NCBI RefSeq assembly: GCF_024223415.1
Contig: NZ_CP100500.1
DNA from: Escherichia coli
Lineage (GTDB): Bacteria; Pseudomonadota; Gammaproteobacteria; Enterobacterales; Enterobacteriaceae
Length of the DNA: 64,000 nucleotides
Strand: one strand, 5' to 3'
A program made the position numbers and the translations under genes. This document shows positions 13,893 to 19,272 of the stretch, in pieces. Numbering within the stretch: position 1 is the first letter of the stretch; each line of letters starts with the position of its first letter. The notes beneath the pieces were generated by a model that was not told the DNA's origin, did no database searches, and was given only the letters and a program-made list of their open reading frames with translations.

Positions 13893-14400
13893 AGTGTATT
13901 CCTTATTGTTGCTTAGTTAGGGTAGTCACTATATTTGCGACTGAGCTGGTCGTTATTTTTACCCAGGCTGGAAAATTGAGTCAATATATCGAAAGCGGTA
14001 GTCGGCGGGCGTAAGTATGTAATGATGATGCTGCACTGGTGTTGAATATTATTCACACCAACTTTTCCTTATTGAGCAACGCCGTCGCAAGTGGCCTCAA
14101 TGATTTTAGACCATTATCAGAGATCCGGGGCGGCAGGGAGAGATTTAGTGCTGTGGAATATTGTGGTGCTGATGAATATTTATATCCCGGATTGGCAGAG
14201 AAAAAGCTTTTTTCATGCACTATTTTTGCAAATATTTCTATATGGACGGCGGTTTTGTTGCGGATTAATTCATAAAGAAATGCATTTGGGTGTTGGCTGG
14301 AAGAAACGCTGGTAGATTTTATTGAGCCAGGAGGGGCGGGGTAATGTGCTGTATCGATATGCTTTGGCAATTGCGTGTGCCGCAGATGGAGATGAAATGC

Positions 14401-14440
14401 CAATAAAAAAGCCTGAGTTCGATGAGGGACGAACTCAGGC
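14401..14440 (-). terminator. Intrinsic terminator downstream of yedS
   Basis: Perfect 11-bp stem GCCTGAGTTCG/CGAACTCAGGC followed by a T-run on the minus strand. Confidence 0.7.
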
Positions 14441-14483
14441 TAGTGTTTAGTTTTACAGTAACACGCCGCGGCGCGTTGGCTGA

Positions 14484-15671
14484 TTAGAACTGGTAGACTA
14501 AGCCCACAGCAACGATATCATCGGTAGCGATACCGTTTTCTTTGTAGAAGTCGTCGTCGTTGTCCAGCAGGTTGATTTTGTAATCAACGTAGGTGGACAT
14601 GTTTTTGTTAAAGTAATAGGTCGCACCGACTTCAACGTATTTAACCAGATCTTTGTTTGCGTAGTGATGATTACCCTGGCTATCAAAGTTATCACCATTC
14701 AATCCGCCTAAATCCTTACCTTTAGATTGCAGGTAAGCGATGGACGGGCGCAGACCGAAGTCGAACTGATACTGAGCAACAACTTCAAAGTTTTGGGTTT
14801 TGTTAGCGATGGCATCAGCATCACCGTAACCAGTCATGTTACGGGTTTCAGCATACATAGCTGCTAAGTAAACGTTATTAGCGTCGTATTTAGCACCAAC
14901 GGTCCATGCTTCTGCTGTTTCACCGCCAGCAGTTGCATCGAAGCGATCTCCATAACGAGTGTTATGCAAACCTTTGTGAACCTGATTGTCAGTACGGTCA
15001 GAATTAGAATATGCAGCACCCAGACTTAAACCAAAGTCAAAGTCATAGGAAGTGGACATACCGTAACCGTCGCCGTTCTCTTTAGCAAGTTTACGGCCAT
15101 TCCCGTTACCTGAACCTTCTTGATCAAATAATCCGCTTTTCTCGTTGTTACCTTGATACTGGAGTGCAAAGTTCAGACCATCAACTTGACCAAAGAAACC
15201 ATTGTTACGATAGGTTGCTACGCTGTTAGCACGACCGTTCATGAAGTTGTCGGCACCAGCATAGGTATCGCCACCAAATTCTGGCAGCATATCGGTCCAT
15301 GCTTCGATGTCATATACGACACCGTAGTTACGACCATAGTCGAAAGTACCATTCTGACCAAAGCCTAAACCTGCAAATGCCAGACGCGTTGCGGTATTAC
15401 CTTTGTCGCTTTCAGGACCGTTTGCGCCAATGTTAAATTCCCACTGACCATAACCAGTGAATTGGTCAGCGATCTGAGTTTCACCTTTGAAACCGATACG
15501 GGCATATGACATGTCGCCATCGCTGCCAGCATCATCAGAGAAGTAGTGCAGGCCCGCTACTTTTCCGTACAAATCCAGTTTATTACCATCTTTATTATAG
15601 ACTTCAGCCGCATTTGCTGCGCCAGCAACTAATAACGCCGGGACCAGCATTGCCAGAACTTTTCTTTTCAT
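14484..15671 (-). CDS. yedS: OmpC/OmpF-family outer-membrane porin, apparently intact (395 aa)
   Basis: [38 protein letters not shown]...VGLVYQF, typical porin N-terminus and C-terminal Phe. Confidence 0.85.
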
Positions 15672-15980
15672 TATGTATTCCCTTGTGATTATAATCTTCA
15701 TGGATATATCAATAAGTGCCGTTATCCAAAAAAGCACATTTGGATACTATTCTATGAAGTTCATTTTATTTTAAGGGTTACATGTAACAAATGTATTTAA
15801 AAGATTTCAAAATGTTTCCAATCTATTTAATATAATTCAGAATTATGAATTCTAGATATAAGCATTCATGAGATTTATAAATATATATCAATATGTTATG
15901 AGTTAATCGGAAAGATAGGGAGTATCAATGAGTGTTGCGCTAAACGGCTGGTGTGATCACGCGCATATTAATGAAGGCAT

Positions 15981-16005
15981 AAAAAAAAGCCGGCATCATG
16001 CCGGC
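15981..16005 (-). terminator. Hairpin GCCGGCAT-C-ATGCCGGC with 8-nt T-run on the minus strand; possible terminator of an RseX-like sRNA
   Basis: Strong GC stem followed by TTTTTTTT on the minus strand in the yedS-yedR intergenic region, with no protein gene upstream on that strand. Confidence 0.45.
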
Positions 16006-16235
16006 CCAAAAAATATAAACAAGACGATAAAAGGCTAATAACGGGGTTATCATGACACAGAAATCAAAAAAGGTATAATTGAATTCGGTGCTAATATATT
16101 GTTTAGGTGAATTAATAAAACCATTACCATAGATAATAATAAATCTTTATTGCTGTTTTTCCGGTAATTATTGCCATTGCGCAAAAATTATCTATTTGTT
16201 CAAAAAATGATTGAGTCTTGACTGGCTCATCCAAT

Positions 16236-17402: not shown

Positions 17403-18821
17403 ATGCAGGAAAATATATCAGTAACCGATTCATACAGCACCGGGAATGCCGCACAGGCAATGCTGGAGAAACTGCTGCAAATTTATGATGTTAAAACGCT
17501 GGTGGCGCAGCTTAATGGTGTGGGTGAGAATCACTGGAGCGCGGCAATTTTAAAACGTGCGCTGGCGAATGACTCGGCATGGCACCGTTTAAGTGAGAAA
17601 GAGTTCGCCCATCTGCAAACGTTGTTACCCAAACCACCGGCACATCATCCGCATTATGCGTTTCGCTTTATCGATCTATTTGCCGGAATTGGCGGCATCC
17701 GTCGCGGTTTTGAATTGATTGGCGGACAATGCGTGTTTACCAGCGAATGGAACAAACATGCGGTACGCACTTATAAAGCCAACCATTATTGCGATCCGGC
17801 GACGCATCATTTTAATGAAGATATCCGCGATATCACCCTCAGCCATAAAGAAGGCGTGAGTGATGAGGCGGCGGCGGAACATATTCGTCAACACATTCCT
17901 GAACACGATGTTTTACTGGCCGGTTTCCCTTGTCAGCCATTTTCGCTGGCTGGCGTATCGAAAAAGAACTCGCTCGGGCGGGCGCACGGTTTTGCCTGCG
18001 ATACCCAGGGCACGCTGTTTTTTGATGTGGTACGCATTATCGACGCGCGTCGTCCGGCGATGTTTGTGCTCGAAAACGTCAAAAACCTGAAAAGTCACGA
18101 CCAGGGTAAAACGTTCCGCATCATCATGCAGACGCTGGACGAACTGGGCTATGACGTGGCTGATGCAGAAGATAACGGGCCGGACGATCCGAAAATCATC
18201 GATGGTAAACATTTTCTGCCGCAGCACCGTGAACGCATCGTGCTGGTGGGTTTTCGTCGCGATCTTAATCTGAAAGCCGATTTTACTCTGCGTGATATCA
18301 GCGAATGTTTCCCTGCACAGCGAGTGACGCTGGCGCAGCTGTTGGACCCGATGGTCGAGGCGAAATATATCCTGACGCCGGTGCTGTGGAAGTACCTCTA
18401 TCGATATGCGAAAAAACATCAGGCGCGCGGTAACGGCTTCGGTTATGGAATGGTTTATCCGAACAATCCGCAAAGCGTCACGCGTACGCTGTCTGCGCGT
18501 TATTACAAAGATGGCGCGGAAATTTTAATCGATCGCGGCTGGGATATGGCCACGGGTGAGAAAGATTTTGACGATCCGCTGAATCAGCAACATCGTCCAC
18601 GTCGGTTAACGCCTCGGGAATGCGCGCGCTTAATGGGTTTTGAAGCGCCGGGAGAAGCGAAATTCCGCATTCCGGTTTCGGACACTCAGGCCTATCGCCA
18701 GTTCGGTAACTCGGTGGTCGTGCCGGTCTTTGCCGCGCTGGCAAAACTGCTTGAGCCAAAAATCAAACAGGCGGTGGCGTTGCGTCAGCAAGAGGCACAA
18801 CATGGCCGACGTTCACGATAA
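17403..18821 (+). CDS. dcm: DNA-cytosine C5 methyltransferase Dcm (472 aa)
   Basis: [12 protein letters not shown] (motif I), GFPCQPFS (motif IV), ENV, QFGNSV motifs. Confidence 0.95.
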
Positions 18822-19272
18822 GGCCACTCGCAGCAAAAATATGCGCGCGATTGCCACGCGTGATACGGCGATTGAGAAGCGCCTCGCCAGTCTGTTAACC
18901 GGGCAGGGCCTGGCGTTTCGCGTTCAGGACGCCAGTCTGCCCGGAAGCCCGGATTTTGTCGTTGATGAATATCGCTGCGTGATATTTACCCATGGCTGCT
19001 TCTGGCATCATCATCACTGCTATCTGTTTAAAGTGCCTGCGACTCGAACCGAGTTCTGGCTGGAGAAGATAGGTAAAAATGTTGAACGCGATCGCCGCGA
19101 TATCAGTCGTTTGCAGGAACTCGGCTGGCGCGTACTGATTGTCTGGGAGTGTGCATTACGTGGGCGCGAGAAGCTGACGGATGAAGCGCTTACCGAGCGT
19201 CTGGAAGAGTGGATCTGCGGCGAAGGTGCCAGCGCGCAGATCGACACGCAGGGGATTCATTTACTCGCTTGA
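18802..19272 (+). CDS. vsr: Very-short-patch repair endonuclease Vsr (156 aa)
   Basis: [32 protein letters not shown]...; start lies inside the dcm 3' end (20-nt overlap, different frame). Confidence 0.9.

Follow-up and report, generated by a model that had tools for sequence, protein, structure and literature searches.

An intact yedS porin gene between hchA and rseX in an Escherichia coli genome

Introduction

In E. coli K-12 MG1655, the porin gene between hchA and rseX is annotated as a pseudogene, yedS (b4496, formerly b1964-b1966). The same locus in another E. coli genome therefore raises the question of whether the gene there is intact, and what its product would do in the outer membrane. 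We analysed a stretch of 64,000 nucleotides from contig NZ_CP100500.1 (the window), for which an initial annotation had described an intact yedS that encodes a signal peptide and a C-terminal Phe and is followed by a strong terminator, and had mentioned a link with carbapenem susceptibility.

Results

The yedS reading frame of the window

The gene lies at the K-12 yedS position, its flanks are colinear and its sequence is continuous with K-12 yedS, so that its earlier naming as yedS holds. The following elements define it:

14484-15671, minus strand: yedS coding sequence, 395 codons and a TAA stop, uninterrupted (open reading frame list and sequence)
15609-15671, minus strand: signal-peptide codons, 21 residues with predicted cleavage between ANA and AE, aligning with the signal peptides of OmpC, OmpN and OmpF
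15679-15684, minus strand: Shine-Dalgarno-like AAGGGA with a 7-nt spacer to the ATG, read in the sequence and conserved in all loci compared
14404-14441, minus strand: intrinsic terminator with a 12-bp stem, an 8-nt loop and a T-run, found by a terminator scan and kept in all allele families

The gene reads on the minus strand of the window, from an ATG (15671-15669) to a TAA stop (14486-14484). A mechanical open reading frame of 417 amino acids, starting from a GTG at 15737, is an artefact; the Shine-Dalgarno sequence and the signal peptide place the start at the ATG at 15671. The N-terminus has MKRK, a hydrophobic core and the ANA-AE junction (sequence and alignment judgement), and in the alignment the N-termini of OmpC and OmpN match it residue for residue. 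The protein ends in VGLVYQF, with the terminal aromatic Phe of a BAM beta-signal, and the terminator hairpin (14441-14410, with 7 G-C pairs in the stem, followed by TTTTTT) lies 43 nt past the stop codon. All three elements named in the initial annotation are thus present at the locus.

The precursor porin of the window is identical to RefSeq WP_000824410.1, which is annotated as intact and is also the accession found in NCTC10973, and the translation at the locus in NZ_CP041110 is identical in pairwise alignment. Alignment with K-12 yedS and with the intact RefSeq protein uncovered no hidden frameshift or stop in the window gene. From its sequence and position, we identify the feature as an intact yedS allele, the hchA-to-rseX/drpB porin gene of E. 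coli.

Lesions in K-12 and O157:H7, and the spread of intact alleles

Pairwise alignment located two lesions in K-12 yedS, and neither the stop codon nor the deletion is present in the aligned yedS of the window:

15186-15188, minus strand: codon 162, CAA (Gln) in the window and TAG in K-12 (pairwise alignment)
15006-15011, minus strand: site of a 1-nt deletion in K-12, TATTCT in the window and TA-TCA in K-12, near nt 662 of the coding sequence (window about 15009)

Together with the annotation b4496, these lesions bear out the earlier statement that yedS is a pseudogene in K-12; in a K-12 derivative, RefSeq flags the gene as 'frameshifted; internal stop'. Over 14300-16000 (the coding sequence and its immediate flanks) the K-12 DNA is 88% identical to the window. 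The ribosome-binding site and signal peptide are identical. The initial 480 nt of the coding sequence match at ~98%, the centre, which codes for loops, diverges, and the 3' end is conserved; loops L4-L7 differ between the two alleles by many substitutions and indels. The 63-mer that carries the K-12 TAG was searched for in 5426 complete genomes; 357 of them have an exact match, and most of these are laboratory strains. In O157:H7, yedS has a separate frameshift (1-nt deletion), which occurs in 298 genomes. Judged by these counts, the pseudogene of K-12 is a lesion of the K-12 lineage. Because two successful clones, K-12 (stop and frameshift) and O157:H7 (1-nt deletion), lost the gene independently, yedS is evidently dispensable.

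Among 14 sampled E. coli loci, 11 have an intact yedS locus; an IS3-disrupted copy also exists, and another locus has no annotated porin. An undamaged yedS is the usual state in E. coli, and the finding of an intact gene is correct but ordinary: the intactness stands, while the emphasis placed on it does not, as it is not a peculiarity of the window. The exact protein of the window is found without lesions in 28 of the 5426 complete genomes (from diverse hosts), and at least 1000 public contigs have it as WP_000824410.1; the allele is shared with E. coli C, NCTC122 and WG5. With the exact protein already in RefSeq and widespread, nothing new is added for this window. For annotation, K-12 is a poor reference for the yedS locus, and the gene is mislabelled 'ompC' by automatic pipelines.

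Porin family, fold and selection

The match to Pfam PF00267 (Porin_1) spans the entire model, 1-337 of 337, at 474 bits (cutoff 23.7; E=3.7e-142). In a phmmer search of solved porins, the best match is OmpK37 (6v78; 488.7 bits, E=1.5e-145, end to end), with E. coli OmpC entries at 407-442 bits and OmpF at about 372. The full-length Porin_1 match and the phmmer E-value of 1.5e-145 to a solved porin exclude a chance open reading frame. Along its full length, the mature protein is homologous to trimeric general porins of solved structure with 16 strands. Among K-12 paralogues, OmpN is the closest (71% amino acid identity), followed by OmpC (66%) and OmpF (63%). The constriction residues K37, R58, R96, D127, E131 and R147 are conserved (corresponding to K16, R42, R82, D113, E117 and R132 of OmpF), and the L3 motif PEFGG is found at residues 130-134. 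An AF2 model (pLDDT 60), built from a 17-sequence alignment, of moderate confidence and used just for strand and loop boundaries, has 16 strands, L3 at 113-150 with a short helix, and low-confidence segments that correspond to loops. Most likely, as these comparisons suggest, YedS belongs to the OmpC/OmpN/OmpK37 group and functions as a trimeric general diffusion porin with 16 strands.

Among five intact alleles of the same family (family A), barrel and turn codons have dN/dS of 0.03-0.11 at dS of 0.16-0.60. Amino acid-variable columns make up 58 of the 148 columns in predicted surface loops and 14 of the 247 elsewhere (p=1.6e-16). The low barrel dN/dS at dS up to 0.6 points to long-term purifying selection, and therefore to a working protein that is kept in nature.

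The upstream region and the possibility of a silent gene

Four elements were located upstream of the start codon:

15672-15981, minus strand: AT-rich leader/regulatory region, 28.7% GC over 310 nt as compared to 49.1% for the window, a presumed H-NS target
15763-15790, minus strand: candidate sigma-70-like match, TTGTTA, a 16-nt spacer and TAAAAT (9/12), the best upstream of yedS in a consensus scan
15950-15970, no strand assigned: counterpart of the K-12 in vitro CRP site, ggTGTGAtcacgcGCATAtta in the window and ggTGTGAtcaggcGCACAtta in K-12, with one half-site weakened by a T at 15966
15982-16071, minus strand: rseX sRNA gene, on the same strand as yedS and ending 310 nt upstream of its ATG (Rfam RF01401, 97.8 bits against a gathering threshold of 50)

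The K-12 annotation has rseX at the same place. The sigma-70 consensus scan upstream of yedS gave 8 sites against 6.0 +/- 2.2 expected, no better than chance, so the best match is not evidence of function or of promoter integrity; its -35 and -10 hexamers are unchanged in K-12. When the AT-rich region is compared with that of 12 other E. coli loci, the identity is 92-95% (about 5-7% of positions differ). The CRP site of K-12, at 2033766, was observed in vitro and assigned to yedS (PMC12871828). The T at 15966 is unique to the window among 13 aligned sequences, and the near-identical strain ECCTRSRTH03 has it too. Another private change is the T-run at about 15732-15737, which has 6 T in the window as compared to 7-9 elsewhere.

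These differences would fit a gene with an intact reading frame that is silent in this strain, i.e., a cryptic gene, silenced for example by upstream regulatory changes, in which coding lesions have yet to accumulate. We regard such a state as unlikely. The upstream region does diverge from that of 12 other E. coli, the private CRP half-site change included, but its best candidate -35 and -10 hexamers match those of K-12, and there is no defect in the ribosome-binding site, start codon, signal peptide or terminator. The adjoining rseX is silent in wild-type K-12, where it is H-NS-silenced and RseX is undetectable unless hns is deleted (PMC8313858). Two clones have lost yedS independently, and these losses, together with the IS-disrupted copy and the locus without an annotated porin, indicate that selection is weak in some lineages; however, 28 complete genomes of varied host origin, and at least 1000 contigs, have the same protein free of lesions, and the barrel has a dN/dS of 0.03-0.11 at dS up to 0.6.

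Expression level

With Sharp-Li weights, the codon adaptation index (CAI) is 0.52 for yedS, 0.47 for ompN, 0.82 for ompC and 0.66 for ompF, and 0.32-0.37 for the neighbouring genes (ompC and ompF, as controls, fall in the expected order, and the absolute values are approximate). A yedS transcript is measurable in K-12 and goes down 2.5-fold with other porins on sigma-E induction (PMC2731931). Recombinant YedS was recognised by 1 of 141 human sera (PMC11242715), a result that fits low exposure and could also reflect allele mismatch. Taking the AT-rich upstream region, the neighbouring rseX and the codon bias as indicators, yedS is probably kept at low expression.

That this strain instead makes YedS constitutively, as a major porin on a par with OmpC and OmpF, seems to us quite improbable. 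With a CAI of 0.52, yedS clearly exceeds its neighbours, yet it stays far below ompC and ompF and near the quiescent ompN. The hypervariable surface loops are as expected of an exposed antigen or phage receptor, but human antibodies to YedS are almost absent (PMC11242715). The AT-rich upstream region next to an H-NS-silenced sRNA, and the quiescence of OmpK37 and OmpS1 (the closest characterised relatives), also argue against a major porin and are consistent with the low expression proposed for yedS.

Gene order and the 'ompC' label

The gene order hprS-hchA-porin-rseX-drpB-yedJ-dcm-vsr is common to the window and K-12, and the flanks of yedS are colinear with K-12 and 97-99% identical. RefSeq names the window gene 'ompC: porin OmpC'. 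The label arises because YedS scores 542.7 bits with the NCBIfam porin OmpC subfamily model, above its cutoff of 484, and OmpN passes this model too. A true or duplicated ompC was ruled out by the locus (ompC adjoins micF and rcsD) and by the 66% amino acid identity to K-12 OmpC, and a foreign or prophage porin of the NmpC/Lc type by synteny and identity. Hence a porin of either kind inserted here, in place of a yedS orthologue, is extremely improbable: the 'ompC' label and a central part that is just 71-84% identical to K-12 yedS would speak for it, but the label comes from a subfamily model that OmpN matches as well, the gene sits at the exact K-12 yedS position between flanks of 97-99% identity, the first 480 nt of its coding sequence are ~98% identical to K-12 yedS, the neighbourhood is without phage or IS genes, and the gene is only 66% identical to the K-12 OmpC of the micF-rcsD locus.

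Porin polymorphism between hchA and rseX

Apart from the finding itself, the polymorphism of this slot is a more interesting point than the intactness of yedS. Between hchA and rseX, E. coli strains have porins of at least four families, whose mature parts are only ~60% identical to each other. Across all 13 loci compared, the ribosome-binding site and the 63-nt signal-peptide stretch are 100% identical, even at ~60% mature identity, and the families share the YQF-stop-terminator end and the conserved flanks. The window family is OmpC/OmpN/OmpK37-like with PEFGG in L3, while the slot porin of phylogroup B2 is OmpF/PhoE/OmpK35-like and has VEWGG for PEFGG.

The conservation of the ribosome-binding site and signal peptide, of the YQF-stop-terminator end and of the flanks around divergent mature parts may reflect repeated, precise replacement of the mature cassette. 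Possibly, although we put this forward tentatively and with some doubt, the slot is a porin-exchange locus, in which mature cassettes are swapped by homologous recombination anchored in these conserved ends and variants are kept by phage, colicin or immunity selection. If so, the polymorphism would be a balanced one with the window allele as a rare variant (28/5426 genomes), the pseudogenes of K-12 and O157 would be losses within one family, and selection would be acting on a supposedly 'quiescent' protein.

Pairing of RseX and MicF with the yedS leader

MicF is said to control yedS. In RNAduplex comparisons with mononucleotide shuffles, the ompF positive control for MicF gave z=-2.1 at full length and z=-4.9 for nt 1-33, as compared to z=-0.13 at full length and z=+1.3 (dG -7.7) for nt 1-33 of MicF with the yedS leader, in what is a crude and not decisive test. 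Direct MicF pairing at the yedS translation start is thus without sequence support. For RseX, pairing with the ompC leader was seen in silico (z=-2.5), and regulation of the neighbouring yedS by pairing was rejected, with no signal for the yedS leader (z=+1.1). Repression of ompA and ompC by RseX was reported in Douchin 2006 (cited in PMC8313858). As RseX represses ompC and ompA yet has no pairing signal with the yedS leader, we hypothesize that joint induction of rseX and yedS would swap OmpC for YedS.

Discussion

Proposed role of YedS

We think it likely, reasoning from the sequence comparisons, that YedS is an OmpC-like diffusion porin, probably quiescent, that would influence carbapenem susceptibility when OmpC and OmpF are absent. 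The protein would be exported through its Sec signal peptide and assembled in a BAM-dependent manner into a water-filled OmpC-like channel, which would pass small hydrophilic solutes, beta-lactams included. Under ordinary conditions yedS would be transcribed weakly, with its AT-rich upstream region silenced by H-NS, as for rseX. YedS would then matter mainly with OmpC and OmpF lost or repressed, when it would maintain the permeability of the outer membrane and thereby influence susceptibility to carbapenems.

The carbapenem link, which the initial annotation had given as reported elsewhere, is indeed present in the literature: as cited in PMC4048246 and PMC11267920, Warner et al. (2013, AAC 57:1935) tied functional YedS to carbapenem susceptibility. 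When OmpC and OmpF are lost, outer-membrane permeability can be maintained by an alternative porin that is intact, and for this reason an intact YedS may be a background gene that modulates susceptibility to carbapenems and cephalosporins. YedS is also a possible phage or colicin receptor.

Comparison with known porins and porin-sRNA pairs

OmpK37 of Klebsiella pneumoniae (6v78), the best-scoring solved relative, shares with YedS the PEFGG motif of L3 and long L4 and L5 loops; it belongs to another species and another locus, and insertions in the phmmer alignment make L5 and L7 longer in the YedS of the window. Like YedS, OmpK37 is an alternative porin that has been implicated in permeability to beta-lactams or carbapenems in cells that lack the major porins. 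Its positional counterpart in E. coli is, presumably, OmpN, as commonly annotated, which is the closest K-12 paralogue of YedS (71% amino acid identity) and has a similar CAI (0.47 vs 0.52). OmpC belongs to the same family and has the same signal-peptide cleavage context, but is 66% identical, lies at another locus and has a much higher CAI.

OmpS1 of Salmonella is a quiescent porin controlled by H-NS/StpA, LeuO and OmpR. OmpK37 and Salmonella OmpS1 and OmpS2 have been described as quiescent porins under H-NS/LeuO control, and OmpS1 in particular as H-NS-silenced and de-repressed by LeuO (PMC4264507). By name, yedS has been equated with ompS1 in a K-12 table (PMC2731931) and in one NCBI annotation, where its product is called 'outer membrane protein S1'. 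By analogy, the regulation of OmpS1 (H-NS silencing, LeuO de-repression) may serve as a model for yedS.

The arrangement of rseX and yedS, with an sRNA gene immediately upstream of a porin gene and targeting other porin mRNAs, has parallels in micC-ompN and micF-ompC, where an sRNA that represses other porins is likewise encoded just upstream of a porin gene. The orientation differs: micC and micF are transcribed divergently from the porin genes next to them, whereas rseX is on the yedS strand.

Intact reading frame of yedS

The porin gene that the initial annotation had called intact is indeed a single uninterrupted ORF from ATG to TAA, and the only detail missing from that call was its strand (minus). 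The features of the gene and its surroundings are as follows:

14484–15671, minus strand: yedS ORF (ATG at 15671, TAA at 14486–14484, product of 395 aa)
15684–15679, minus strand: AAGGGA, ribosome-binding site (RBS) of yedS, 8 nt upstream of the start
14441–14410, minus strand: yedS terminator hairpin, a 12-bp stem then TTTTTT, 43 nt past the stop
15982–16071, minus strand (as yedS): rseX sRNA gene (Rfam, 97.8 bits), upstream of yedS and separated from its ATG by 310 nt

The signal peptide, C-terminal Phe and terminator proposed earlier are all borne out: the N-terminus is a classical signal peptide that aligns residue for residue with those of OmpC, OmpN and OmpF, the protein ends in ...GLVYQF, and the hairpin lies just beyond the TAA. 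A longer version in the mechanical ORF list (417 aa, from GTG at 15737) was rejected, since the position of AAGGGA, the signal peptide and the alignment with paralogue N-termini all place the real start at 15671.

The gene order in the window (hprR-hprS, hchA, porin, rseX, drpB (yedR), yedJ, dcm, vsr) is that around yedS in K-12 MG1655, where the locus is annotated as pseudogene yedS b4496, in line with what had been claimed for K-12 (RefSeq flags the gene in one K-12 derivative as 'frameshifted; internal stop'). Global alignment of the two coding regions located two K-12 lesions: codon 162 is TAG in K-12 and CAA in the window (15186–15188), and K-12 is short by one base near CDS nt 662 (window about 15009). 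The alignment found neither lesion in the window, whose translation is RefSeq WP_000824410.1; in both ECCTRSRTH03 and NCTC10973 the corresponding CDS is annotated as intact.

Two observations concern neighboring regions. In the hchA-yedS intergenic region (14039–14275, plus strand), the RefSeq annotation of close relatives has a 78-aa 'hypothetical protein' (WP_156890186.1); in the window its ORF begins with GTG, a 116-aa ORF runs across it on the other strand, and the call is probably spurious. Few mismatches to ECCTRSRTH03, the strain with the near-identical yedS region, occur before about 17300, beyond which dcm holds a cluster of them (about 40 in 1.4 kb; compared region 17600–19000, dcm and vsr), a pattern suggestive of recombination with its boundary between yedJ and dcm.

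Intact copies among E. coli genomes

We sampled 14 loci, most of them picked at regular intervals down the ranked list of the 4890 complete genomes that matched (the K-12 MG1655 locus was added separately, and one locus was judged by feature names alone). An intact porin CDS occupies the yedS slot in 11 of the 14; the broken copies are those of K-12, one O157:H7 genome and one locus split by an IS3 element (H14). One further locus beyond the 14 has the slot without an annotated porin. The O157:H7 copy (MB41-1, locus L004) carries a 1-nt deletion at CDS nt 608 (L004 about 1064, window about 15064). A 63-mer with the K-12 TAG is found exactly in 357 of 5426 complete genomes (the examples listed are laboratory K-12 derivatives), and one with the O157 deletion in 298 of 5426; the two losses are independent and clone-specific.

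Intact relatives of 395 aa are numerous in the protein database, and at least 1000 contigs encode the very protein of the window, under the record 'MULTISPECIES: porin OmpC'. Over the loop-coding part of the window allele (14487–15230), 28 complete genomes match at 100% identity, among them E. coli C, NCTC122, C122 and WG5, a coliphage host; the complete-genome collection does not contain the window strain (best match over 24 kb: 99.1% identity). A 94%-identical protein, labelled E. albertii, is found in the same synteny. Intact yedS is thus not unusual in E. coli. The observation is confirmed and its interpretation supported: what the window carries is an ordinary intact allele, catalogued before, of an alternative porin that is itself known.

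Protein family and pore features

YedS matches the whole Pfam Porin_1 model (E=3.7e-142). It scores 542.7 bits on the NCBIfam 'porin OmpC' subfamily model, above its cutoff of 484, and does not pass the NCBIfam OmpF and PhoE equivalog models. Among solved structures, Klebsiella pneumoniae OmpK37 (6v78) ranks top with 488.7 bits, followed by Omp36 and OmpK36 (about 448), E. coli OmpC (407–442), PhoE (383) and OmpF (372); amino acid identity to the K-12 paralogues is 71% for OmpN, 66% for OmpC and 63% for OmpF. All six residues shaping the OmpF/OmpC constriction are kept (OmpF K16, R42, R82, R132, D113 and E117 are YedS K37, R58, R96, R147, D127 and E131), and the L3 motif PEFGG is present. An AF2 model of moderate confidence (pLDDT 60, from a shallow alignment of 17 sequences) has the expected 16 strands, with loops L2–L8 as its low-confidence stretches. 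The sequence shows that yedS encodes a general-porin precursor that is complete; from its family, the protein would be expected to be exported, form trimers and act as a channel.

In PGAP annotation, slot porins of family A are named 'ompC: porin OmpC', also where the gene is a pseudogene (K-12 and O157), so these genomes seem to carry two ompC genes; family B and C porins are labelled just 'porin'.

Polymorphism of the hchA-rseX slot

Compared with K-12, the two-thirds of yedS that code for the loops are 71–84% identical and the surroundings of rseX 85%, with the flanks at 97–99%, the ordinary E. coli divergence. Across E. coli, the slot holds at least four porin families, about 60–72% identical in the mature part.

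Table. Porin families in the hchA-rseX slot (members; length; amino acid identity to window; genomes covering at least 80% of the mature-region query, out of 5426)
A: window, K-12, O157; 395–404 aa; 86–96%; 1391
A': STEC17-183; 387 aa; 72%; 366
B: Z22-7, FDA1265; 357–371 aa; about 62%; 1355
C: LF82, strain 1506; 352 aa; about 60%; 1140

In families B and C, VEWGG takes the place of PEFGG, and the OmpF model scores highest on them, yet below every NCBIfam cutoff; OmpK35 is the best-scoring solved structure for a family C allele. The slot porin is OmpC/OmpN-like in some strains and OmpF/PhoE/OmpK35-like in others. All 13 loci compared share the RBS and the 63 signal-peptide nt at 100% identity, and conservation across families extends to the YQF-stop-terminator segment and the flanks: what diverges is exactly the cassette that codes for the mature protein. 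We found no description of this polymorphism in literature naming yedS (most subscription journals lay outside the search), and at the population level it is the sole part that might repay further work.

Selection on yedS

Five intact same-family alleles (window, W46, TK3887, Br112 and MDK6L1) were compared. Of the 148 columns in predicted surface loops, 58 vary in amino acid, against 14 of the 247 outside them (odds ratio 10.7, p=1.6e-16); dN/dS is 0.03–0.11 in barrel and turn codons (at dS 0.16–0.60) and 0.13–0.37 in loop codons. A barrel under strong purifying selection combined with exposed loops that change fast is the mark of a surface protein in actual use and exposed to view, and not that of a decaying relic.

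Expression and upstream region

The 310 nt from rseX to the yedS start have 28.7% GC (49.1% for the window). RseX is undetectable in wild-type K-12 and appears on hns deletion (PMC8313858). Salmonella OmpS1 and OmpS2 are quiescent, H-NS-silenced and de-repressed by LeuO (PMC4264507), and yedS has been equated with ompS1 in a study in which the K-12 yedS transcript was measurable and dropped 2.5-fold on sigma-E induction, alongside other porins (PMC2731931). Recombinant YedS was recognised by only 1 of 141 human sera (PMC11242715). The CAI of yedS (0.52, with absolute values approximate; neighbors 0.32–0.37) is close to that of ompN (0.47), while those of ompF (0.66) and ompC (0.82) are far above it. 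Taken together, these lines favor YedS being a conditionally expressed minor porin.

The best candidate sigma-70-like match upstream (15790–15763) is no better than chance and is the same in K-12. The upstream region has changes private to the window. At 15950–15970 lies the counterpart of a CRP site that was found in vitro for K-12 and assigned there to yedS (PMC12871828); one half-site is GCATA in the window and GCACA in K-12, and would be weakened by the T at 15966, which is private to the window among 13 aligned sequences and also present in the near-identical ECCTRSRTH03. The leader also has a short T-run of variable length (about 15732–15737, some 60 nt before the ATG), with 6 T in the window and 7–9 T in the 12 other loci compared.

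Small RNAs and comparison with other porin-sRNA pairs

The region 15977–16226 (rseX and the rseX-drpB intergenic region) is a second divergence peak against K-12 (84.8% identity). The 5' part of RseX differs, being TTTTTTGATTTCTG...GATAACCCCG in the window and TTTTTATTATTCTG...GATGCTTCCG in K-12; within the sample, the window variant is shared with W46 only, and rseX variants do not follow porin family in the sampled loci.

Warner 2013 reportedly found yedS to depend on MicF. A duplex test that recovers the known pairs MicF-ompF (z=-4.9) and RseX-ompC (z=-2.5) gave no pairing with the yedS leader for either MicF (z=+1.3) or RseX (z=+1.1), so direct complementarity at the yedS start site does not support the MicF dependence. 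The rseX-yedS pair may parallel micF-ompC and micC-ompN, in that RseX would spare its neighbor yedS while repressing OmpC.
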